Program-made: the position numbers and the translations under genes | Notes under the pieces: generated by a model | Database searches by the model: none | Seen by the model: the letters and a program-made list of their open reading frames with translations, nothing else | Told to the model about the DNA's origin: nothing | Part shown: positions 9,833-36,333 of the stretch, one piece after another | How the letters are laid out: each line of letters starts with the position of its first letter | Position numbering within the stretch: position 1 is the first letter of the stretch | DNA from: an uncultured Candidatus Saccharibacteria bacterium | Lineage (GTDB): Bacteria > Patescibacteriota > Minisyncoccia > Phycocordibacterales > DATDWN01 | NCBI GenBank assembly: GCA_964616425.1 | Contig: CAZTQY010000002.1 | Coordinates: 2,910 to 66,909 of the forward strand | Reading direction: 5' to 3' | Length of the DNA: 64,000 bases

Positions 9833-11536
9833 ATGTTCCACAGTCTAAAAACAATTTTTCGAAGAAGAAATTTGAAGGCCAATAGAGACATAGATCCAGA
9901 TGAGATTTTTCTCGACTCTCAAAATCTTCCGGAATTTGATACCAACCAGTTTGAGGGACGAATAGAAAAACCAATATCTAGAAATGTTTTTACATTTGTA
10001 GTTATGTTTGTTGTTATTGTTGGCTCAATATTTTGTTACAAATTGTGGAGTTTGCAGGTAACTAACGGTGAGACATTTAGAACTAGAAGTGATAACAACA
10101 GTCTACACAAAACATTAATATATGCGAATAGAGGTGTGATATATGATAGAAATGGTGTTCCACTAGTATGGAATGATGTAAATCCGGAATCTTCGGATTA
10201 TTCTCTGCGTGTCTACGCTACTTCTACGGGACTTTCAACAGTAATAGGATATTTGAAATATCCAACAAAGGATTCTTCTGGTATTTACTATCAAGAAAAG
10301 TTTGATCCAAAGGATGGTATGGAGAAAATATACAATAATCAGTTATCAGGTCTAGATGGTACAAAAATAATAGAGACAGATGTAAAGGGAAATGTTATTT
10401 CTGAAAGTGTGGTGGATAAACCAGTAGATGGTCAAAACGTTGTTACTTCAATAGATATCAGGTTACAGAGACGACTCAACACATCTCTTTTGGATATTGC
10501 CGATCGTGCTGGCTACAAAGGTGGAGCCGGAATAATAATGGATGTTAAAACAGGTGAGATTTTGGCATCGAGTAACTTTCCAGAATATGATTCTCAAATA
10601 ATGACTGATGGTTCAAACGGTACCAAAATCACTGAATGGATAAACTCAAGTAATCATCCATTTTTAAACAGAGCGATAGATGGTCTGTATACACCTGGGT
10701 CTATTATGAAATTGTTTGTGGCTATGGGAGTTTTGGATCAACAAGTTATTTCACCAACAAAACAGATTTTAAGTACGGGTTCAATCACAATACCTAACCC
10801 GTTTTATCCAGATAAACCATCAGTATTTATGGATTGGAAGGCCCATGGTTTAGTTGATCTACGCAGAGCAATAGCCGTTTCGTCCAATGTGTACTTTTAT
10901 GAAGTTTCTGGCGGGTATAAAGATCAAAAGGGAATTGGAATAGATAACTTAGATAAATACGTAAGCATGTTCGGTTTTGGTGCTACGACGGGCCTTGATT
11001 TTCCTGGAGAAAAAAACGGAACAGTGCCAAGTCCAGAGTGGAAAAAGAAAACTTTTGATGGGGAAGACTGGCGAGTTGGAGATACGTATAACACCGCTAT
11101 CGGTCAGTATGGTTTTCAAGTTTCACCAATCCAGGTTGTTAGAGCTGTTGGAGCTATAGCGACAAACGGAAAATTATTAACACCAACTTTTATAAAGGAT
11201 AAAGCTGGCACACTACCAGTTTCAGATGTGGTTTTAAATCCTAGTTATTATCAGATTGTTAAAGAAGGAATGCGACAGGGTGTGACTGAGGGAACTTCAC
11301 AAGCAATAAACTTTCCATTTGTTCGTGTTGCCTCAAAAACTGGAACAGCTCAAATCGGAGTAGCAAAAGATGAAGTTAACTCATGGGTAGTTGGCTTCTG
11401 GCCGTACGAAAATCCAAAGTACGCTTATGTAGTTGTGATGGAAAGAGGCTCAAAGAACAACCAATTTGGAGCGGTGTTGGTTATGCAAGAGTTTCTGGAC
11501 TGGGTCCATGTATATACCCCAGAGTATTTGGAGTAA
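9833..11536 (+). CDS. mrdA: Penicillin-binding protein 2 (elongation transpeptidase)
   Basis: SIMK (SxxK), SSN (SxN) and KTGT motifs. N-terminal TM. Operon position after mreCD. Confidence 0.85.
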   Translation: MFHSLKTIFRRRNLKANRDIDPDEIFLDSQNLPEFDTNQFEGRIEKPISRNVFTFVVMFVVIVGSIFCYKLWSLQVTNGETFRTRSDNNSLHKTLIYANRGVIYDRNGVPLVWNDVNPESSDYSLRVYATSTGLSTVIGYLKYPTKDSSGIYYQEKFDPKDGMEKIYNNQLSGLDGTKIIETDVKGNVISESVVDKPVDGQNVVTSIDIRLQRRLNTSLLDIADRAGYKGGAGIIMDVKTGEILASSNFPEYDSQIMTDGSNGTKITEWINSSNHPFLNRAIDGLYTPGSIMKLFVAMGVLDQQVISPTKQILSTGSITIPNPFYPDKPSVFMDWKAHGLVDLRRAIAVSSNVYFYEVSGGYKDQKGIGIDNLDKYVSMFGFGATTGLDFPGEKNGTVPSPEWKKKTFDGEDWRVGDTYNTAIGQYGFQVSPIQVVRAVGAIATNGKLLTPTFIKDKAGTLPVSDVVLNPSYYQIVKEGMRQGVTEGTSQAINFPFVRVASKTGTAQIGVAKDEVNSWVVGFWPYENPKYAYVVVMERGSKNNQFGAVLVMQEFLDWVHVYTPEYLE

Positions 11537-11687: not shown

Positions 11688-11716
11688 TTGACCGTAGTGT
11701 ATTTTTAAGCTATACT
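11688..11716 (+). promoter_or_regulatory. Sigma70-like promoter for greA
   Basis: TTGACC (11688-11693), 17-nt spacer, TATACT (11711-11716), about 35 nt upstream of the greA ATG. Confidence 0.45.
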
Positions 11717-11750
11717 ATGCGGAATTAGTTAATTAAAAAAGCCCAAAACA

Positions 11751-12203
11751 ATGAAGGAATATTTGACACAAGAGAAATATGACGAGTTTAAGGCGGAGTT
11801 AGCACTACTAAAAGGTACAAAGAGAAAAGAGGTGGCAGAAGCTCTAGAATATGCAAAGTCTTTGGGAGATTTGTCTGAAAATGCAGAGTATCATGAGGCA
11901 CGAGATAACCAAGGTGTGATAGAAGATAGAATAGCTAAACTTGAGGATTTGCTAAAAAATGCAAGTATCATCAAGTCTAACAATACTGGTATGGTTGGGG
12001 TGGGCTCTGTGGTTACTGTTGAAAAAGATGGTAAAAAAGTTGAATATACTATCGTAGGTTCAGAAGAGTCTGATTTTGTAGCGAACAAAATTTCTATGCG
12101 TTCACCTTTTGGTCAGGCAATAATGGGTAAGAAAAAGGGGGATACTTTTACATTCAAAGCGCCTAATGGTGAGCTTACATATTCAGTTAAGGAAGTTAAG
12201 TAA
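11751..12203 (+). CDS. greA: Transcription elongation factor GreA
   Basis: 150 aa with the conserved acidic-tip region. Confidence 0.9.
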   Translation: MKEYLTQEKYDEFKAELALLKGTKRKEVAEALEYAKSLGDLSENAEYHEARDNQGVIEDRIAKLEDLLKNASIIKSNNTGMVGVGSVVTVEKDGKKVEYTIVGSEESDFVANKISMRSPFGQAIMGKKKGDTFTFKAPNGELTYSVKEVK

Positions 12204-12329
12204 AATATTTTCTCTAGTTTTTACAGACACGCATAAACCCCTGTTGGGGTTTTGCTTTGCTCGAAAATCAAGAAAACAATAGTCCTCACTCCAGAGCCTT
12301 CTCGCAAACTCGCTTCGCACCACACGGAC

Positions 12330-12420
12330 ACTAATGTGCCACTTAGTACTTCCAATTTCTAATCGCTCTACTCAAGAAATTTAGGTCGCTCAAACAATGC
12401 TCCAGGCTTCTTTCTGTTCG
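12330..12420 (+). repeat. Diverged copy of the dispersed intergenic GUAC-hairpin repeat family
   Basis: cacttagtacttcc...ggtcgctcaaacaatgctcc resembles ggagtacatttgtacaccttggtcgtaaacaaatcctgcg of the 42165 copy. Confidence 0.3.
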
Positions 12421-12509
12421 TCGTTGTTTTCTAATTTCCTGCGCAGGTCTATAAAAAATATAGAAAATTCTACTTTGGAGATTTTAGAATCAAATGTTAG
12501 TATATTGTC

Positions 12510-13970
12510 ATGGCATCACTTGAAGAAATAAAGCAGGGACGACTTGCAAAGCTACAAATCTTAAAAGACAAAGGTATTAACCCGTATCCTGCATCAGTTC
12601 CTAGAGATTTTTCTATTAGTTACTTTAGGGAAAATTTTGATTCAAAGGTTTCTGAAGCCGGCAAAGTTTCTATCGCTGGAAGAGTTATGGCCTTGAGAGG
12701 TCAGGGAGCGATACTTTTTGCTGTACTTTTTGATGGGACTGAAAAAATTCAAGCAATAATAAAAAAAGACACCTTAACTGATGAAGTCTTTTCTCTTTTT
12801 GTCGATACAGTAGATATTGGAGATTTTATTTCTGTTACAGGAACTCCAATGCTTTCGAAAACTGGTGAACAGAGTGTTATGGCTGAGTCTTGGGTAATGG
12901 CTGGAAAGACACTGCTTCCTTTGCCTGAAAAATGGCACGGACTACAGGATGTTGATGAGAGATACAGAAAGCGATACTTAGACTTCCTTATGGATGACGA
13001 TTTGCGAGCTTTGATCGTAAAGAAATCAAAGTTCTGGTCAGTGGCTAGAGATTTTCTAAACAAAGAAGGTTTCCTTGAGGTAGAGACTCCAACACTAGAG
13101 GTAACTACTGGTGGAGCCGAAGCTAGACCTTTTAAAACACATCATAACGACTTTGATCTAGATGTTTTTATGCGGATATCGGTTGGTGAGTTGTGGCAGA
13201 AGAGACTGATGTCTGCTGGTTTCGAAAAAACATTTGAGTTGGGAAGAGTATATAGAAACGAAGGTTCATCTCCTGAGCATTTGCAAGAATTCACAAACCT
13301 TGAGTTTTACGCTTCTTTCATGACTTTTGAAGATGGAAAAGAGTTAGTCAAAAAACTTTATAAAAAATTAGCAGAAGATACTTTTGGTAAAACAGAGTTT
13401 GAAACTCGAGGTCACAAGTTTGACCTAGCAGGAGAGTGGGAAGAGCTCGACTATGTCGAAACAGTAAAGAAAATGACTGGTGTAGACGTTATAAAAGACA
13501 CTGTAGAAACTTTGCAGGCAAAACTAGATGAGCTAAAAGTAAAATACGATGGAAATAACAGAGAGAGGATGACAGATAGTTTGTGGAAGTACTGTCGAAA
13601 ATCTATCGCAGGCCCAGCGTTTCTAGTAAACCATCCAAAACTAGTTGCGCCTCTTTCAAAGGAACATCCAGAAAATTCAAACCTTACAAAAACATTTCAA
13701 GTGATCCTGGCTGGTAGTGAACTTGGTCGTGCACATGCAGAACTTAATGATCCGATAGACCAAGCGCAGAGGTTTAGTAAACAAAAGGAACTTATCGAAG
13801 GGGGAGATGAAGAGGCAATGATGTCAGACGATGAGTATGTTGAAATGCTCGAGTATGGAATGCCCCCTACATTTGGTTTCGGCTTTGGAGAGAGACTCTT
13901 TGCATTCCTTGCGGATAAACCGTTACGAGAGTTGCAAACCTTCCCACTAATGCGCCCAAAATCCGAGTAA
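12510..13970 (+). CDS. lysS: Lysyl-tRNA synthetase, class II
   Basis: 486 aa with an N-terminal OB-fold region and class II catalytic motifs. Confidence 0.9.
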   Translation: MASLEEIKQGRLAKLQILKDKGINPYPASVPRDFSISYFRENFDSKVSEAGKVSIAGRVMALRGQGAILFAVLFDGTEKIQAIIKKDTLTDEVFSLFVDTVDIGDFISVTGTPMLSKTGEQSVMAESWVMAGKTLLPLPEKWHGLQDVDERYRKRYLDFLMDDDLRALIVKKSKFWSVARDFLNKEGFLEVETPTLEVTTGGAEARPFKTHHNDFDLDVFMRISVGELWQKRLMSAGFEKTFELGRVYRNEGSSPEHLQEFTNLEFYASFMTFEDGKELVKKLYKKLAEDTFGKTEFETRGHKFDLAGEWEELDYVETVKKMTGVDVIKDTVETLQAKLDELKVKYDGNNRERMTDSLWKYCRKSIAGPAFLVNHPKLVAPLSKEHPENSNLTKTFQVILAGSELGRAHAELNDPIDQAQRFSKQKELIEGGDEEAMMSDDEYVEMLEYGMPPTFGFGFGERLFAFLADKPLRELQTFPLMRPKSE

Positions 13971-14043
13971 AATTATCTCATCTACGCGACCTTATTTTCT
14001 TATGAGCAATGCGAATTAGAAAATGGAAGTACTCTTGTGGTGT

Positions 14044-14128
14044 GTTGTTGCTGTTCAATTTTATTCATTCACCGTACGTCAAAGTACGGCTCACTCACAA
14101 AATCTCCAGCGCCTAGCATCTGAGGCAA
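14044..14128 (+). repeat. Dispersed intergenic repeat (GUAC-hairpin family), copy downstream of lysS
   Basis: gttgttgctgttcaatttt...accgtacgtcaaagtacggctcactcacaaaatctccagcgcctagcatctgaggca. Near-identical to the copy at 35326-35410. Confidence 0.7.
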
Positions 14129-14144
14129 TTTAACTCAGATTAGA

Positions 14145-14170
14145 GACCACCAAAGTAGGTGGTTTTTTGG
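14145..14170 (+). terminator. Intrinsic terminator after lysS
   Basis: gaccacc-aaagta-ggtggt followed by tttttt. Confidence 0.7.
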
Positions 14171-14179
14171 TACTCAAAA

Positions 14180-14580
14180 TCATCTATTGACACAATCTGC
14201 TGGAGGTGTATAATATTATATGTGAATGGAAGAGGTGGCGTAAACGTGAACCTTTGGCGATATTCGCGGAGGATGGCGGTTACGCAGAAATACATCATTC
14301 CAATGTCACACCAGCTTGCGGAGGCTTCCAAATCGTCCTTACAGCCTTAGTTGTTCGGTCGATAAATAGATTCGCAGGCTGGAGTTCTTCTCAGGCATCA
14401 GTTCTTCCGAACAGGAGGTGCTCGTTGTATGAGTTTGGTTCCGGCAGGATGTAGGCCTGTCGGCAGAGATGGGGCCTGTTGTACCCATATAAGTTCTGTT
14501 CCGCAGGTGGGTGTCCACAATACACCAGGCACGGCCCCACCTGCGGAAATCTACAAGCTGACTTCGGTCGGCTTTTTTCG
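14180..14580 (+). ncRNA. Probable structured non-coding RNA gene of unidentified class (candidates: RNase P RNA, tmRNA, 6S)
   Basis: About 400 nt at roughly 55% GC in a 35% GC genome, with only short overlapping ORFs. Bounded by the lysS terminator upstream. Ends with an 11-bp stem (ccgcaggtggg/cccacctgcgg) plus an agctgac-ttcg-gtcggc-tttttt terminator at 14556-14579. Confidence 0.5.
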
Positions 14581-14605
14581 TATCTGAATTCCCAAAATAG
14601 AGCGA

Positions 14606-14801
14606 AATCATGAGTTTTTAAAACCCTGCGGAAGCAATTAGCAAATAACGACAAAGATAAAGTAAGCCTGAAGCATCTACCCCGCAGGGGCGACCAAAGG
14701 GAGTCTGCGTAAGGCTACGTATCGAGGAGATTAGTTGCTTGATTGCTGAGCAAGAGCAAAAATTCAACAGAATTTTATGTGTGTTTTAAAAACTCATGAT
14801 T
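14606..14801. repeat. Element bounded by a 19-bp perfect inverted repeat enclosing about 158 nt of GC-rich sequence
   Basis: aatcatgagtttttaaaac (14606-14624) and gttttaaaaactcatgatt (14783-14801). Inner cctgcgg...ccgcagg complementary pair. Confidence 0.55.
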
Positions 14802-14844
14802 GAGCCAAAGTTATCCACTTTTTTGTGGATGTTTTTGGTAGACA

Positions 14845-14890
14845 GTGGGAAGTAGTGGTATATAATGTTATCTAAGTGGGAAGTAGTGGG
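14845..14890 (+). promoter_or_regulatory. mra promoter with direct GTGGG repeats (probable MraZ operator) flanking a tatataat -10 box
   Basis: gtgggaagtagtgg (14845-14858), tatataat (14859-14866), gtgggaagtagtggg (14876-14890), 30 nt upstream of mraZ. Confidence 0.6.
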
Positions 14891-14919
14891 AAACGCCAAA
14901 AAATTAAAATAATAAAATC

Positions 14920-15354
14920 ATGCTTATAGGAGAATACACACATAGCATAGATGATAAAAATAGGCTTTCTCTTCCTGCAAAATTTCGAACAGAGCTTGGT
15001 AAAAAAATAGTTGTTACTCAAGGTTTGGATAACTGTCTTTGGGTTTTCAAACATGTAGAGTGGCAAAAGATTGAAGAGAAGTTAAATCAATCTTCAATCG
15101 GTCAAGCTGATAATCGAAGTTTTAACCGCTTGATGTTTTCTAGTGCAGTGGAGGCCGAAGTAGATTCTATCGGTCGAATACTTGTTCCAGAATTTTTAAG
15201 AGACAGAGCAAATTTAAAAAATAAAGTAGTAGTTATCGGGGTCTCTAGTCGAGTTGAAATTTGGAACGAGAAGACTTGGAGCGACTATAAGAAAGTCGTT
15301 GAAAAACAAGCTGATGCACTGGCAGAAAAGTTAGGCCAAGTTGGAGTCATATAA
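14920..15354 (+). CDS. mraZ: Transcriptional regulator MraZ
   Basis: 144 aa. The duplicated DxxxR motif region (IDDKNRLSLPAKFR ... VDSIGRILVPEFLR) is typical of MraZ. Confidence 0.9.
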   Translation: MLIGEYTHSIDDKNRLSLPAKFRTELGKKIVVTQGLDNCLWVFKHVEWQKIEEKLNQSSIGQADNRSFNRLMFSSAVEAEVDSIGRILVPEFLRDRANLKNKVVVIGVSSRVEIWNEKTWSDYKKVVEKQADALAEKLGQVGVI

Positions 15355-15356
15355 AT

Positions 15357-16277
15357 ATGATTCATAAGACTGTTCTTTTACATGAAGCTATAGATGGATT
15401 GGATATCAAAAATGGTGACATTTTTGTTGACGGTACATTGGGAGGAGGCGGACATAGTGAGGAAGTAGCAAAAAGGTTTGGTAATTCTGTTGTCATGATC
15501 GGAATTGACCTTGATCCTGAAGCAATAGAACGTGCCTCTGCACGACTTTCCCCACTAAATCCAAACATACAATACATTCATGGCAGTTTTCGCAACATAG
15601 ATAATCTTTTGGAGACATCTGGTATCAAAAGTGCAGATAAAATTTTGCTTGATATTGGACTTTCTTCAAACCAGTTCGAGGATTCTGGTCGAGGTTTCTC
15701 ATTTCAAAAGGATGAGCCTCTGATAATGTCATTCAAAAAGGATTTAAAACAGGAAGACCTTACCGCGAGAGAAATCGTTAACACTTGGGATTTAGAGAAT
15801 ATATCTACTATCCTCAAGAGCTATGGTGAAGAGCAGTTTGCTTGGAAAATTGCCAAGGCGATAGTAGCTAGAAGAGAGATAAAACCGATTGATACTACAT
15901 TTGATCTGGTTGAAATCATAAAAATAGCCACTCCAAAGTGGTATCACCACAAAAGAATTCACCCAGCTACAAAAACATTTCAAGCTTTACGTATAACTGT
16001 AAATGATGAGATAGAGAGTTTGAAGGATGGTGTTGCAAAAGGGTTTAGTATTCTAAATCCTGGAGGTAGACTGGCGGTCATATCATTCCACAGCATCGAG
16101 GACAGAGTAATAAAAAATTTTTATAGAGATAGAGACAAGGAAGGTTTAGGTAAGGTGATTACAAAAAAACCCATAATACCTACTGAGGCGGAAATAGCAG
16201 AAAATCCTAGATCACGAAGTAGTAAATTGCGAATAATAGAGAAAACAACCGTGCGAAGCCGAGCAGTGGTCGCATGA
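15357..16277 (+). CDS. rsmH: 16S rRNA m4C1402 methyltransferase RsmH (MraW)
   Basis: VDGTLGGGGHS SAM-binding motif, position after mraZ. Confidence 0.9.
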   Translation: MIHKTVLLHEAIDGLDIKNGDIFVDGTLGGGGHSEEVAKRFGNSVVMIGIDLDPEAIERASARLSPLNPNIQYIHGSFRNIDNLLETSGIKSADKILLDIGLSSNQFEDSGRGFSFQKDEPLIMSFKKDLKQEDLTAREIVNTWDLENISTILKSYGEEQFAWKIAKAIVARREIKPIDTTFDLVEIIKIATPKWYHHKRIHPATKTFQALRITVNDEIESLKDGVAKGFSILNPGGRLAVISFHSIEDRVIKNFYRDRDKEGLGKVITKKPIIPTEAEIAENPRSRSSKLRIIEKTTVRSRAVVA

Positions 16278-16286
16278 CCAAATATA

Positions 16287-16598
16287 ATGACAGAAAAAGT
16301 ATTACAAATAAATAATGAGAAGACTATATTCTGGAGTATTTTGGCACTCTTGCTGTTATCTTTTGGTTTCTATATGTATTTTATAAATGCAACAGTACAT
16401 AATGTAGTTGCAAGACAAAATCTTGAAGCTGAAGCATCAAATCTAACACTGACTATTGGCAACCAAGAATTTCAATATATAACAAGCCGTAACAATGTAA
16501 CATTAGCCCTCGCACATTCAATGGGTTTCAAAGATGTTTCAGAAAAAACATTTATATCAAGAGATGGTGGCAAGCAAGTTTCTCTTCTTTCCAGATAA
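16287..16598 (+). CDS. FtsL-like single-pass membrane protein of the dcw cluster
   Basis: 103 aa with a single TM, sitting between rsmH and ftsI. Confidence 0.45.
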   Translation: MTEKVLQINNEKTIFWSILALLLLSFGFYMYFINATVHNVVARQNLEAEASNLTLTIGNQEFQYITSRNNVTLALAHSMGFKDVSEKTFISRDGGKQVSLLSR

Positions 16599-16656
16599 AA
16601 TATTTTTATATTTCATAGTTTTTTGATAAGATAGATATTGCTATTTTCTTTTTAAT

Positions 16657-18363
16657 ATGAAGAACAACTACATACTCAGAATTCGTATAATCTCTCTAGC
16701 TATTTTTGCGTTTGCTCTGTTACTTATCGGTCGATTGTATGTATTGCAGATAGTAAGAAACGATAACTATATAAATAAAGCAGACAGGCAGTATTCATCT
16801 TCGGCAAATAAAGTGTTTAGTCGGGGAACAATATATTTTCAAAATAAAGATAAAACTCTAGTATCAGCTGCCACACTAAAATCTGGTTTTATCGTTGCTA
16901 TAAATCCAGAAATTTTACAAGAGCCTGATGATGTTTGGTTGAAGATAAAAGATTTAATTTCGATTGAGCATGATGCTTTCATATTGAAGGCTAACAAAAA
17001 AAATGATCCATATGAGGAGATTGCTACTCATGTGGACGAGGCTGTTGGAAAACAGATTTCTGATTTAAATATAAAAGGTTTACAAGTATATAAAGAGAGA
17101 TGGAGGTTTTATCCAGGAGGTAACACAGCGGCTCATGTTTTAGGTATTTTGGGGTACAAGGGTGATGAATATGCTGGAAGGTATGGTCTTGAGAGTAAAT
17201 ATGAGACATTACTTGAGCGAAAAGATGGAGCGTATGTTAATTTTTTTGCTGAAATGTTTTCTGATATAAAAGCCGCGACTAATCCAAGTGAAGAAAATGA
17301 AGGAGATATAGTTACGACCATAGAACCTACTGTACAGACTTTTCTTCAGTCTGTTTTGGCTAGCACAACGGAAAAATGGGACTCAGATTTGACTGGAGGC
17401 ATAATAATGGACCCAAAAACCGGAGAAATAATCGCCATGGAAACTTATCCGACTTTTGATCCAAATAACTCTGGTGAACAAAAGAATTCTGCAATATTCT
17501 CAAACCCTCTGGTGGAAAATGTGTATGAAATGGGTTCTATTATTAAACCGCTAACAGTGGCTGCTGGAATTGATCTTGGAGTTATAACATCCAAGTCAAC
17601 GTACTACGACAAAGGTTTTGTGATGATAAGTGGAAAAAAGGTTTCTAACTTTGATGGTAAAGAAAGAGGAGTTGTTAATATGCAAGATTTACTCTCTCAG
17701 TCACTAAATGTTGGTGCTGCATATGTAGAAAAGCTAATAGGTAATAAAAAATTTGCTGAGTATATTAACTTGTATGGTTTGGGAGAGAAAACTGGTATTG
17801 AACTTCCAAATGAAGCAAAAGATTTGATATCTAGTCTAAAAGGAAATATTGATATTGATTTTGCAACTGCATCTTTTGGTCAGGGTATAGCTCTTACTCC
17901 AGTTTCAACTATTAGAGCACTGTCAGTCATTGCAAACGGTGGTTTTCTTGTTAACCCTCACTTGGTTAAAAGTATAAATTATAAAATCGGTGTTTCAAAA
18001 GATACTCCTATAGATCCAGGCAAATATGTTTTAAAGAGAGAGACCACTGAAGAGGTTGCGAGGATGATGACATACAGTGTGGACAATGTGCTTTCTAATG
18101 GTACACTCAAAATACCTAACTATAGTGTGGCTGCAAAGACAGGTACAGCACAGATAGCCAAGGAGGGTGGGGGTGGGTACTATGATGACCAGTTTCTACA
18201 CTCATTTGTAGGTTTTTTCCCATCGTATAACCCAAGATTCATTATATTTTTGTACACTTTGCATCCAAAAGGAGCTCAGTTCGGTTCAGAAACACTAACA
18301 CACCCTTTTATGGATATAGTCAACTTCCTCATTAACTACTACGAAATCCCCCCAGACCGTTGA
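16657..18363 (+). CDS. ftsI: Division-type penicillin-binding protein (FtsI/PBP3-like transpeptidase)
   Basis: N-terminal TM, SIIK (SxxK), SLN and KTGT motifs, dcw position. Confidence 0.8.
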   Translation: MKNNYILRIRIISLAIFAFALLLIGRLYVLQIVRNDNYINKADRQYSSSANKVFSRGTIYFQNKDKTLVSAATLKSGFIVAINPEILQEPDDVWLKIKDLISIEHDAFILKANKKNDPYEEIATHVDEAVGKQISDLNIKGLQVYKERWRFYPGGNTAAHVLGILGYKGDEYAGRYGLESKYETLLERKDGAYVNFFAEMFSDIKAATNPSEENEGDIVTTIEPTVQTFLQSVLASTTEKWDSDLTGGIIMDPKTGEIIAMETYPTFDPNNSGEQKNSAIFSNPLVENVYEMGSIIKPLTVAAGIDLGVITSKSTYYDKGFVMISGKKVSNFDGKERGVVNMQDLLSQSLNVGAAYVEKLIGNKKFAEYINLYGLGEKTGIELPNEAKDLISSLKGNIDIDFATASFGQGIALTPVSTIRALSVIANGGFLVNPHLVKSINYKIGVSKDTPIDPGKYVLKRETTEEVARMMTYSVDNVLSNGTLKIPNYSVAAKTGTAQIAKEGGGGYYDDQFLHSFVGFFPSYNPRFIIFLYTLHPKGAQFGSETLTHPFMDIVNFLINYYEIPPDR

Positions 18364-18380
18364 AATTACTTTATATACTT

Positions 18381-18468
18381 CGTTGTGATTAGATTTTATT
18401 CGATCACTGTACGTTAGAGTACAGCTCACTCATAAAATCTCTCACGCCTTGTCTCTAAAGCAATTTCC
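18381..18468 (+). repeat. Dispersed intergenic repeat (GUAC-hairpin family), copy downstream of ftsI
   Basis: ...ttcgatcactgtacgttagagtacagctcactcataaaatctctcacgcc... The stem ctgtac/gtacag shows compensatory changes relative to ccgtac/gtacgg in the other copies. Confidence 0.65.
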
Positions 18469-20460: not shown

Positions 20461-20532
20461 TGACCTTACCGGGAATCGAACCCGGATTTAAGCCTTGAGA
20501 AGGCTTCGTCCTAACCGTTAGACGATAAGGCC
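20461..20532 (-). tRNA. tRNA-Glu, anticodon CUC
   Basis: 72-nt cloverleaf read on the minus strand: GGCCTTA / D-arm GTCT..GGAC / anticodon stem AAGCC-TTCTCAA-GGCTT / T-arm CCGGG-TTCGATT-CCCGG / TAAGGTC-A. CCA is not encoded. Confidence 0.65.
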
Positions 20533-20550: not shown

Positions 20551-20693
20551 CTAGGGAATCGAACCGGCTCTCCTCCTTACAGGAGCAGTATACCTTTCGC
20601 TCTCTGACTACAGAGTGCTCAAGGTCTTGCAGTTGGGTCCCTATCCCAACTTCACCTCTCAAAGACCTTGTCTAACCTCTAGACTATAAGGCC
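20551..20693 (-). pseudogene. tRNA-like fragment or pseudo-tRNA
   Basis: Minus strand starts GGCCTTATAGTCTAGAGGTTAGACAAGGTCTTTGAGA, with an acceptor and D-arm nearly identical to the adjacent tRNA. The anticodon stem AGGTC only finds its partner GACCT about 36 nt later. A distal GCCGGTTCGATTCCC has no matching T-stem or acceptor 3' end. Confidence 0.4.
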
Positions 20694-20745
20694 AATTGAA
20701 CAGGAAAACTATAGCATTTTTTACAAAAAAATCAAAAATAAAAAA

Positions 20746-20784
20746 TTGACAAGTAGCTATTTTGCTATTAAATGTATTTAGGAG
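20746..20784 (+). promoter_or_regulatory. Promoter (consensus -35 TTGACA) and AGGAGG Shine-Dalgarno for the REC-like gene
   Basis: ttgaca 20746-20751, a -10 candidate tattaa/taaatg around 20766-20774, aggagg 20779-20784, ATG at 20790. Confidence 0.4.
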
Positions 20785-20789
20785 GCAGC

Positions 20790-21260
20790 ATGAAAATTCT
20801 GTTGGTAGAGGATGACTGGGTTGAGCGCGAGATGGCGCTCGATGACATCCGTGCACTGCTACCCAGAGCAGAAGTGACCGCGCTTATGAACGCTGGGGAA
20901 ATGCTCCTCAAGGTTCAGGAGGGTACTGATCTGGGTGGCGTGGATGTTGTGGTCATGGAACACCACCTTCCTCTCTGGGCAATCGGTGAGTCAGAGGAGG
21001 AGTGGGACCAAGCAGTAGGCAATCTCGAAAGAGATTTTCCTGAGGTGATTAGGGAATGGGACGGTCAGTTAGCTGGTGAGCGGCTCGTCCGCTACATGCG
21101 ATCGATAGGAATTCTGATTCCCGTTCTCTTCCACACGTACACTCAGGAATCACACATCGCTGAGGATGTTCGGAGAATGTCCAAAGTCTTCTACTGCTGC
21201 AAGCTACTTGAAAGGGAGCATCTTCCTGAAGCGATCACTGCGGCTGTGCAGGCTCGCTGA
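20790..21260 (+). CDS. Stand-alone CheY-like receiver (REC) domain protein, probably a pseudo-receiver
   Basis: KILLVEDD start. Glu appears where the phospho-acceptor Asp is expected (VDVVVMEHHLP). Conserved T/S (LFHTYT) and Lys (SKVFY) are present. About 57% GC. Start placed at 20790 (SD-ATG) rather than the track's 20772. Confidence 0.55.
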   Translation: MKILLVEDDWVEREMALDDIRALLPRAEVTALMNAGEMLLKVQEGTDLGGVDVVVMEHHLPLWAIGESEEEWDQAVGNLERDFPEVIREWDGQLAGERLVRYMRSIGILIPVLFHTYTQESHIAEDVRRMSKVFYCCKLLEREHLPEAITAAVQAR

Positions 21261-24935: not shown

Positions 24936-25130
24936 CTAGTCGATGGGAAACTCTATTTCGTTTCCCTGATCGGCGGCAGCCTCTGCTCCAGAGAGAAGCT
25001 TGTCGAGGCGTACAGCCTCGAGGCATTCTTCTTTTTCGACCCCTCTCAAATCGTGGGGTAAATCAAGAAGTGACGCCACTTCCTCAGGGGTGAGGTCATC
25101 GCGGTCTTTGCAGGCCGCATCATGAGCCAT
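24936..25130 (-). CDS. Small acidic protein C (64 aa), third gene of a GC-rich triad
   Basis: MAHDAACKDRDDLTPEEVASLLDL... About 58% GC. Preceded on its strand by a near-consensus promoter and GGAGG SD. Paralogous to 28709..28891 (C.RD...[ST].EEVA.L..D block). Confidence 0.55.
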   Translation of the reverse strand: MAHDAACKDRDDLTPEEVASLLDLPHDLRGVEKEECLEAVRLDKLLSGAEAAADQGNEIEFPID

Positions 25131-25241: not shown

Positions 25242-25454
25242 TCATCGGCTTTTCACTCCTTTTTTGTTTTGGAGTTCCAAAGCCTCTTTCTTGATGTTTC
25301 TCCTTGCGGTTTCTTTTGTTTCTCCAAAGAAGCCAAAATGGATTAGACAGTCATTTAGAACTGTCTCGAACAGGTCGGGGTCCGTATTGCCTTGCATCCT
25401 TTGTCTGTCGTACTCGGAGTTTACCCACCGAGCCATCTTGTGGTTTTCTTTCAT
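25242..25454 (-). CDS. Small basic protein B (70 aa, or 64 aa from the internal Met), middle gene of the triad
   Basis: MKENHKMARWVNSEYDRQRMQG...ARRNIKKEALELQNKKGVKSR. GC-rich. Same position and size as 28907..29089. Confidence 0.45.
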   Translation of the reverse strand: MKENHKMARWVNSEYDRQRMQGNTDPDLFETVLNDCLIHFGFFGETKETARRNIKKEALELQNKKGVKSR

Positions 25455-25598: not shown

Positions 25599-25802
25599 CT
25601 ACGCCGCCGAGGCTTTTAAAAGATTCTTGTACTCCACACCGATCTGTTTTCGTAGTTCCAGATCGCATGGATTGTCGCCGTTTCGCTCCATCACTCGACT
25701 GACGATTGAATCGAGTTCTGACGCTGATGCGCCATCGCTGTCGGCATAAATCTTTTCTGCCATCTGTTTGACAGTCATCTTCTTCTTGTGCACTTTTATC
25801 AC
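25599..25802 (-). CDS. Small protein A (about 60-67 aa), first gene of the triad
   Basis: ...MTVKQMAEKIYADSDGASASELDSIVSRVMERNGDNP... Paralogous to 29190..29375 (S..E[LV].[DS]IV....ER block). GTG/ATG start ambiguous. GGGAGGGGG SD upstream. Confidence 0.5.
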   Translation of the reverse strand: MIKVHKKKMTVKQMAEKIYADSDGASASELDSIVSRVMERNGDNPCDLELRKQIGVEYKNLLKASAA

Positions 25803-35325: not shown

Positions 35326-35410
35326 CGTTGTTGCTGTTCAATTTTTCTCATTCACCGTACGTCAAAGTACGTATCACTCGCAAAATTTCCAGCGCCTAGT
35401 ATCTGAGGCA
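35326..35410 (+). repeat. Dispersed intergenic repeat (GUAC-hairpin family), copy downstream of ctpA
   Basis: cgttgttgctgttcaatttttctcattcaccgtacgtcaaagtacgtatcactcgcaaaatttccagcgcctagtatctgaggca. Confidence 0.7.
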
Positions 35411-35438
35411 TTTTTGAAATTATTACGTTTATGCTAAT

Positions 35439-35955: not shown

Positions 35956-36333
35956 TTACTTGGTTTTGCGCCTCTTCCTGTCGGTGAAGTCCTGCTGGAG
36001 CCAAGCGTCCACGTCGACTCCCCGAGAATCAAGGATGGAGCACCAAACCATGATGGCTGTGTCTCCGATGCCTTCGTACTCCATCAACTGATGGAGGTCA
36101 ATCCTCCGGGCGAGCTCGTGCACTCCCTTGGGTTTGAACCTTTGCAAAACGAGATCGAGATTGGCGGCAGCGAAGAAGTTCGCAGTTTCCGCCTTCACAA
36201 CCATGTCACGTCGGGTGAACTGGTCTTTGCCGACCTGTACAATCGTCTCAGGGAGACGATCGACGTAGTTCTTACCGATGTGGTCTTTCCAGCGTTTGTG
36301 TGCCATGTACGCCACTCCTTTGAGGCGTTTCAA
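35956..36333 (-). CDS. Hypothetical GC-rich protein (about 55% GC)
   Basis: 125-aa ORF, MKRLKGVAYMAHKRWKDHIGKNYVDRLPETIV... Composition differs from the flanking ribosomal genes. The plus-strand ORF 35953..36336 is its mirror artefact. Confidence 0.45.
   Translation of the reverse strand: MKRLKGVAYMAHKRWKDHIGKNYVDRLPETIVQVGKDQFTRRDMVVKAETANFFAAANLDLVLQRFKPKGVHELARRIDLHQLMEYEGIGDTAIMVWCSILDSRGVDVDAWLQQDFTDRKRRKTK

Follow-up and report, generated by a model that had tools for sequence, protein, structure and literature searches.

What occupies the long, GC-rich spacer between lysS and mraZ in an uncultured bacterium, and is it a gene? In the 64-kb stretch of contig CAZTQY010000002.1 analyzed here (the window), the lysyl-tRNA synthetase gene lysS (12510-13970) is followed by a 949-nt spacer and then by mraZ (14920-15354). 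Within this spacer, an initial annotation had proposed an unannotated structured RNA gene at 14180-14580 and had suggested RNase P RNA, transfer-messenger RNA (tmRNA), or another housekeeping RNA, with a divergent or unusual RNA as the fallback. Our analysis predicts that positions 14187-14580 are a self-contained gene for a noncoding, highly structured small RNA (sRNA) of ∼355 nt. The RNA gene is modular, fast evolving, and accessory, and it is not a housekeeping RNA; its product is probably a trans-acting, structure-dependent accessory sRNA belonging to a new, clade-restricted family.

The composition of the segment sets it apart from its surroundings. G+C content is 49.9% over 14180-14580, 51.9% over 14221-14580, and 53% over 14300-14580, against a window mean of 37.8%, and the level of 14180-14580 is equalled by only 3.9% of 401-nt windows. 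The GC enrichment in the initial annotation therefore stands, while its figures (∼55% against 35%) were too high. As it had also stated, no open reading frame (ORF) exceeds 90 amino acids (aa) and short ORFs overlap in all frames; the longest are 90 aa at 14339-14611 (− strand) and 82 aa at 14206-14454 (+ strand).

Signals for transcription flank the segment (Table 1). A sigma-70 promoter that matches the consensus at all 12 hexamer positions, a feature absent from the initial annotation, is one of four such sites over both strands of the window (128 kb). At the other end lies the hairpin-T6 terminator that had been placed at 14556-14579. The perfect stem ahead of it had been described as 11 bp and is a 13-bp perfect inverted repeat. 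Promoter and terminator, on one strand, delimit a predicted transcript of ∼355 nt (14221-14580, + strand). The + strand folds at −145 kcal/mol, with a z score of −5.95 against dinucleotide shuffles (0 of 100 shuffles equal), and the reverse complement yields a z score of −1.46; that is, the structure is strand specific. Both the minimum free energy (MFE) and the centroid structures are a row of separate hairpin domains. We infer that the transcript is made as an abundant stand-alone RNA.

Relatives of LysS belong to the candidate phyla radiation (CPR)/Patescibacteria (Paceibacteria/Parcubacteria, near Zambryskibacteria and Nomurabacteria), and the nearest species representatives have 95, 93, 85, 84, and 74% LysS identity; a LysS scan of JGI metagenomes found no relative closer than 74%. 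From these relatives we assembled 80 genome loci (L-numbered), with 1.52 Mb of related loci for covariance searches. The RNA body has no match in the 80 loci by blastn or nhmmer, even at 95% LysS identity, and none among PLSDB plasmids. Homologues were found by structure. A single-sequence covariance model (R2) of the first 165 nt of the RNA (14221-14385, module A) matched L003:2984-3142 at 44.2 bits (E value, 2.6e-7) and, with filters off, L007:7300-7424 and L001:8100-8241, both on the + strand of the lysS-mraZ spacer. A second model (R3), built from L003, L007, and L001 with the window left out, recovered window positions 14221-14385 at 51.8 bits (E value, 5e-8). It also found L004:7654-7814, at coordinates foreseen by eye, and L258:2039-2172, and it gave no stray match at an E value of ≤10 in the 1.52 Mb of related loci. 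Homologues of module A thus come from five related genomes, all in the lysS-mraZ spacer and all on the same strand.

Folded singly, all six module A sequences give the same topology, in which a 5-bp helix P1 (UGUGR...YCACA) and helix P1a surround a variable hairpin and the long hairpin P2 follows after 0 to 1 nt. In the six-sequence alignment, 95.5% of pair cells hold standard pairs, compared with 81% in shuffles and 35 to 45% in controls with slid partners. Two-sided changes occur in 24 of the 37 base pairs, and none of 500 shuffles was as good. The outer stem of P2 is 100% paired in six distinct sequences, with compensatory changes in 9 of its 12 pairs; P1 is 96.7% paired and has two compensatory pairs. 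In L001, L003, L004, and L007, as in the window, TTGAC(A/T) and a TATAAT-like hexamer that ends 7 nt before P1 precede the module. The window has the traits that define the new family, namely the P1/P1a/P2 layout, a match to R3, and a position on the + strand of the lysS-mraZ spacer; the family promoter pattern is TTGAC(A/T)-17-TATAAT-like, ending 7 nt ahead of P1. Among five other related genomes, then, the structure of module A is conserved and its sequence barely so. The initial annotation had named comparative covariation as a check on its proposal, and helices are indeed kept through compensatory changes in syntenic homologues. Together with the same-strand promoter and terminator and the strand-specific fold, these homologues support its core claim of an unannotated structured RNA gene.

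The 3′ part of the RNA recurs in another setting. A covariance model (R1) of positions 14436-14552 (module C) matched L257:2772-2888 at 99.6 bits (E value, 4e-22; 84% identity) and, weakly, a separately promoted unit at L007:7691-7816 (16.5 bits). In L257, module C is fused to another 5′ part, which resembles the second unit of L001. In L003, L004, and L007, module A is joined to the module B hairpin described below; in L258, a terminator follows module A directly; and L007 carries two such RNA units in tandem. Since modules are combined differently in the window, in L257, in L003, L004, and L007, and in L258, the RNAs of this spacer are mosaics drawn from a small set of modules (A, B, C, and D).

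In four relatives, the RNAs carry close to their 3′ end the module B hairpin, whose stem covaries and whose 21-nt loop, UGCAAAGCAAAUAGCUGAGGU, is nearly invariant. One of these, L002, carries the hairpin, and R3 detects no module A there. Module B is absent from the window RNA. The idea that stem D6 of the window is a diverged copy of the hairpin with the UGCAAAGCAAAUAGCUGAGGU loop was dropped as unproven, the MAFFT alignment being out of register. We also discarded an internal repeat or the template repeat of a diversity-generating retroelement, as the window holds no second copy of the RNA body. A phage origin was rejected as well: the loop pattern of module B does not occur in IMG/VR, 80 viral loci obtained with a loose 5′ motif gave no R3 match, and R3 found nothing at an E value of ≤1 in viral contigs that total 0.72 Mb and were preselected for a 5′ motif. 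A weak resemblance to the architecture of module A (R2, 17.5 bits) was seen at L010:5064-5183, in the mraZ 5′ untranslated region 3′ of the MraZ boxes, where a long hairpin pair (GGGAATC.../CCCCTCACCCAG...CTGGGTGAGGGG) is found.

Strains of the same species differ at this locus. Exact-protein look-ups with the window MraZ and GreA yielded three conspecific contigs (L246, L247, and L248); the look-up with LysS returned nothing, and that with FtsL returned no further alleles. L248 carries the window allele at 99.96% identity. L246 and L247 are 99.4 to 99.7% identical to the window over 11700-13972 and 98.8 to 99.8% identical over 14566-16700, and the 593 nt between these flanks, which take in a repeat element, the promoter, and the RNA as far as the terminator's 5′ arm, are replaced by 344 unrelated nt. 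Identity resumes at 14566, so that the 3′ arm of the terminator is the right-hand junction. The alternative cassette holds a 75-aa ORF (MSDKMKWRLEGYDTFDSEYY...) along with a ribosome-binding site and a promoter, and it ends in the same terminator 3′ arm. This ORF has no Pfam or PADLOC match, and the same small ORF adjoins RNA units in L001 and L257. Its product is a small, acidic protein of 75 to 84 aa with the pattern …WRLEGYDTFDSE…DEAGA…QDRVYI…PDG.RR.Y, an alternative or neighboring occupant of the lysS-mraZ spacer. The absence of the RNA gene in L246 and L247 was seen at this locus, and a copy could lie elsewhere in those genomes.

Relatives show the same fluidity. lysS and mraZ are adjacent in ∼60 of the 80 loci, with spacers of 148 to 3930 nt. 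Spacers of close relatives hold other GC-rich units running from promoter to terminator, which fold at z scores of about −5, as strongly as the window RNA, and the spacers of L260, L054, L008, and L011 are short and carry no cassette. An Rfam scan of the related spacers in 19 loci found only tRNAs. The lysS-mraZ spacer is a hypervariable islet.

Could the RNA nevertheless be a housekeeping RNA, an RNase P RNA, tmRNA, 6S, or signal recognition particle (SRP) RNA so divergent that standard models miss it? A length of ∼355 nt and the GC enrichment would fit, and none of these RNAs was found elsewhere in the 64-kb window. CPR RNase P RNAs, moreover, are diverged and may score below Rfam thresholds (PMC8172020), so our verdict is not rested on family searches alone. 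Those searches were negative throughout. With Rfam 15 (4227 families), nothing in the whole window except tRNA-Glu reached a gathering threshold, and a permissive scan of 14000-15000 (E value, ≤10) gave only chance-level matches to isrB, HYMAI, and STnc410 and none to RNase P (RF00010/RF00011), tmRNA, 6S, SRP, T-box, or introns. The Infernal check that the initial annotation had proposed thus speaks against its own candidates. ARAGORN called no tmRNA. The RNase P P4 strands of CR-I (GAGGAAAGUCC) and CR-V (ACAGAAnnCGGCUUA) have no match within three substitutions on the + strand, and no signature string for P4/CR-I/CR-V, the tmRNA T-arm (with CCA) or 5′ end, SRP, or T-box occurs within two substitutions, in agreement with the failure to find RNase P and tmRNA strings by eye; the few matches at three substitutions look like chance. 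For SRP domain IV (GGAA/AGCA loops), the long string is unmatched within three substitutions and Rfam gives no match. For 6S RNA, likewise, there is no Rfam match, and the MFE and centroid structures have neither a rod with a central bubble nor pairing of the 5′ and 3′ ends; the string of separate hairpins has no P4-centered core either. The decisive evidence is comparative. A gene in whose place other strains have something else cannot encode the RNase P RNA, tmRNA, SRP RNA, or 6S RNA of the cell, and the locus lacks the gene in the conspecific L246 and L247 and in several related species. BLAST fails to align the RNA even where LysS identity is 95%, and L007 carries two units in tandem. The housekeeping explanation is close to refuted, and the fallback of a divergent or unusual RNA was right. 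A protein-coding origin, either as a 52-codon ORF at 14429-14587 (+) or as a pseudogene of an acquired GC-rich gene, appears very improbable. This ORF is the only one with a ribosome-binding site, a perfect Shine-Dalgarno sequence (AGGAGGTG) 8 nt before its ATG, and small GC-rich ORF cassettes with similar promoters and terminators do occur in the genome, one of them at this very site in other strains. The ORF, however, extends across both the 13-bp stem and the terminator, with its stop codon past the T run. The start codon is ATA in L257, the homologues differ by indels whose lengths are not multiples of three, and substitutions track base pairing rather than codons. None of eight ORFs from the region matches Pfam. 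A tblastx match to a decayed coding gene, which would have spoken against an RNA, was not seen in the RNA body among the 80 loci; the only match was to the promoter region shared with L004.

We consider it probable, then, that the gene specifies an accessory sRNA that acts in trans. Because helices are held by compensatory change while loops and linkers vary, with no single-stranded seed common to the members, the RNA would work by its fold, offering a scaffold or a decoy to a protein or other ligand, and not by a conserved antisense seed. New alleles may arise by recombination between conserved flanks (the end of lysS on one side and the terminator plus downstream element on the other) and by module shuffling. 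Several points weigh against this reading. Module A is represented by only six distinct sequences, which are related, and their alignments were fitted to the model; the covariation counts are for that reason indicative and not a formal test. Support for module C comes mainly from one 84%-identical homologue, and most of its two-sided changes come from the weak L007 match (16.5 bits). Transcription, transcript ends, and abundance are predictions, and action in trans through shape is deduced from the pattern of conservation. Presence and absence among strains would also suit a dispensable or selfish element. That alternative, in which the helices are kept for the stability or propagation of the cassette, or are merely inherited, and serve no cellular function, seems to us quite unlikely. 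It would account for the within-species polymorphism, for the mosaics in which modules A, B, C, and D recur in differing combinations, for the several other repeated intergenic elements around the site, and for the other GC-rich cassettes with promoter and terminator elsewhere in the window. Compensatory substitutions in P1 and P2 over lineages down to 71% LysS identity, on the other hand, indicate purifying selection on structure; consensus promoters are kept in every copy checked; and no transposase, integrase, or known terminal repeats were seen beside the cassette.

The location beside the cluster of division and cell wall (dcw) genes raises another explanation. UpsM is an abundant sRNA released from the dcw leader of Rhodobacter through partial termination upstream of mraZ (PMC5089854, PMC8266604), and dcw transcription of that type does without a separate mraZ promoter and relies on read-through of the sRNA terminator (PMC5089854). 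By analogy, transcription from 14187 might mostly end at the terminator, with some of it reading through the downstream element into mraZ-rsmH-ftsL-ftsI, and the RNA or its processing would then tune the operon in cis, in trans, or both. The layout is indeed alike: a strong promoter of its own, an intrinsic (Rho-independent) terminator, a position directly upstream of mraZ and in the same orientation, a small ORF that starts before the terminator and has its in-frame stop just past it, and a narrow clade (the Rhodobacteraceae for UpsM) (PMC5089854, PMC8266604). The family, furthermore, always adjoins mraZ. Against this stands the conserved promoter of mraZ itself, with two predicted MraZ boxes, 3′ of the terminator; UpsM-type control demands that such a promoter be absent. 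With this predicted promoter of its own, mraZ would not depend on that of the RNA. A second terminator-like hairpin lies at 14812-14831, and many relatives and conspecific strains lack the RNA. A crude duplex-energy search over 60 translation start regions showed no enrichment of dcw targets. The window RNA is also longer (∼355 against 206 nt), varies between strains, and belongs to an unrelated phylum. The likeness is positional, drawn from descriptions rather than sequences, and no Rfam family matches the window region; nor is it extended to processing, which in UpsM depends on Hfq and RNase E. An UpsM-like leader or sRNA is in our view unlikely, though credible, and the RNA is possibly linked to dcw in the way that UpsM is. 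It is rather unlikely, but worth stating, that the spacer is an "RNA cassette islet," a recombination hot spot of these ultrasmall bacteria that shuffles and exchanges RNA modules (A, B, C, and D) and a small protein gene, even among strains of one species, akin to defense or host-interaction islands. Were it so, the RNAs of the islet would form a new accessory class of functional RNAs, not ordinary regulators but, for example, scaffolds or decoys in phage defense or in episymbiotic interaction with a host.

Returning to the accessory sRNA that we favor, comparison with known RNAs helps to delimit it. RNase P RNA, with the diverged forms of CPR bacteria among it (PMC8172020), is alike in length, in being GC rich in an AT-rich genome, in its many helices, and in its CPR host; it differs in that the window RNA has no P4 core or covariance signal, shows no sequence conservation among close relatives, is missing from conspecific strains, and is sometimes tandem. 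The GC/IGR orphan noncoding RNA motifs from the Breaker laboratory (PMC8632094, PMC11109978) likewise come from long, GC-rich, ORF-free intergenic spacers, covary, and are orphans, whereas the window RNA has so far been seen only in a small group of Paceibacteria, is modular, and is swapped as a cassette at one islet. With 6S and CsrB/Rsm RNAs it would share rapid sequence drift with shape or short motifs kept; unlike them, it has no rod or central bubble, no end pairing, and no GGA displayed in loops, and no csrA is seen in the window. A CsrA sponge of the CsrB/RsmZ type was rejected, since most GGA and GGAGG motifs fall within predicted helices and not in hairpin loops; tblastn with CsrA gave nothing in the window and only weak matches (E value, 0.003) at four distant loci.

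The genomes of CPR/Patescibacteria are tiny and contain very little noncoding DNA, and to our knowledge almost nothing is known of their regulatory RNAs. The locus described here adds a covariation-supported RNA family outside Rfam, beside a cell division operon. For a structured RNA it is unusual in being modular, in escaping BLAST at 95% identity of a neighboring protein, and in being present or absent from strain to strain. When genome completeness is judged, an RNA-like, GC-rich spacer of a CPR genome should not be mistaken for a missing housekeeping RNA such as RNase P. The RNA cassette and the small-ORF cassette form a natural allele pair for functional study.

Table 1. Coordinates of features in and around the lysS-mraZ spacer (window positions unless an L-numbered locus is given)
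Feature	Position	Strand	Basis or remarks
Sigma-70 promoter, TTGACA-16 nt-TATAAT, 12/12 consensus	14187-14214	+	Ends 7 nt before first helix
Module A, first half: P1 (14221-14225/14306-14310) and P1a (14227-14231/14298-14302), enclosing variable hairpin	14221-14310	+	MFE; model R3
Module A, second half: P2, long hairpin abutting P1, with 12-bp outer stem	14311-14382	+	Pair counts in six sequences
Linker hairpin D3, CUUCC paired with GGAGG; holds Shine-Dalgarno-like AGGAGGUG and ATG 14429	14390-14433	+	MFE
Module C (117 nt): D4 (14441-14463), D5 (14464-14498), and D6, 13-bp perfect stem (14499-14511/14536-14548)	14436-14552	+	Model R1
Intrinsic terminator: 8-bp stem, UUCG loop, U6	14555-14580 (hairpin 14555-14574 plus T run)	+	−10.9 kcal/mol
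Polymorphic segment, RNA cassette versus 75-aa-ORF cassette	13973-14565		Flank identity, unrelated middle
Repeated intergenic element, ∼95 nt, part of strain-swapped segment	14044-14131	+	Repeat copies
Hairpin plus T6, terminator-like; closes lysS 3′ region/repeat element	14142-14170	+	Sequence reading; RNAfold, −13.0 kcal/mol
Structured element with perfect 19-nt inverted repeat (AATCATGAGTTTTTAAAAC), between RNA terminator and mraZ promoter	14606-14801		Context only
mraZ/dcw promoter, TAGACA-16 nt-TATAAT, 11/12, with two MraZ boxes (14844 and 14875)	14839-14891	+	
Module B loop	L002:7680-7700; L003:3205-3225; L004:7860-7880; L007:7465-7485		
75- to 84-aa protein ORFs	L246:2358-2585; L001:7521-7748; L257, 84-aa ORF just after lysS		

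On its 3′ side, mraZ is followed by rsmH, ftsL, a penicillin-binding-protein (PBP) transpeptidase gene, and a Mur ligase gene (dcw), and greA and another PBP gene lie 5′ of lysS. The two PBP genes are of class B (transpeptidase plus dimerization domain) and, at 9833-11536 and 16657-18363, bracket the greA-lysS-islet-mraZ-rsmH-ftsL block. Upstream of the RNA promoter, the initial annotation had placed the lysS terminator at 14145-14170. A hairpin with T6 is there and is a plausible terminator, but it is not directly that of lysS, because it lies 175 nt past the lysS stop codon (13970) and behind the ∼95-nt repeat. The latter has three copies in the window, after lysS, before murE (18393-18466), and before rplI (35327-35414), and occurs in L001, L004, L008, and L009, with covariation between copies in the hairpin CCGTAC/GTACGG. 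Rfam gives no match for the element, which could serve as a cis-regulatory leader or be a repeat element.

Between the RNA terminator and the mraZ promoter, the element with the 19-nt inverted repeat is predicted to be structured on both strands (z scores, −6.9 and −6.5). Homologues are found in L007, whose arms carry compensatory changes, and in L004, L002, L246, and L258. A partial inverted copy in the greA-lysS spacer (12216-12389) supplies a terminator-like hairpin. In the mraZ promoter, one of the 17-nt MraZ boxes (AGTGGGAAGTAGTGGKA) lies between the −35 and −10 hexamers and the other just downstream, an arrangement conserved across related loci; 109 sites give the consensus AGTGGGAAGAAGTGGGA. 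A role for the RNA 5′ end as an MraZ operator was discarded, as a position weight matrix from the 109 boxes scores it at −9 to +6.7 bits, against 27 to 29 bits for true boxes. At 14811-14831, a DnaA-box-like TTATCCAC(T/A) pairs with GTGGAT in a small hairpin that is kept just upstream of the mraZ −35 hexamer in many relatives. The window has no oriC signature, with a single DnaA-box-like site and a monotonic GC skew.

Farther away, small GC-rich ORFs of 64 to 162 aa with no Pfam or PADLOC match lie at 24936-25130 (−), 25242-25454 (−), 25599-25802 (−), 35956-36333 (−), and 20772-21260 (+), and perfect consensus promoters precede those at 24936-25130 and 35956-36333. The small ORFs give the impression of acquired accessory cassettes and are laid out like the cassette of the 75-aa ORF. 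Beside tRNA-Glu(CUC) (20461-20532), the − strand at ∼20553-20695 begins like that tRNA (TGGCCTTATAGTCTAGAGGTTAGAC...) and continues with an 8-bp hairpin, a long loop, and a T-loop-like TTCGATTCC; neither ARAGORN nor Rfam makes a call there, and the sequence may be a tRNA that was interrupted or has decayed, or what is left of an attachment site.

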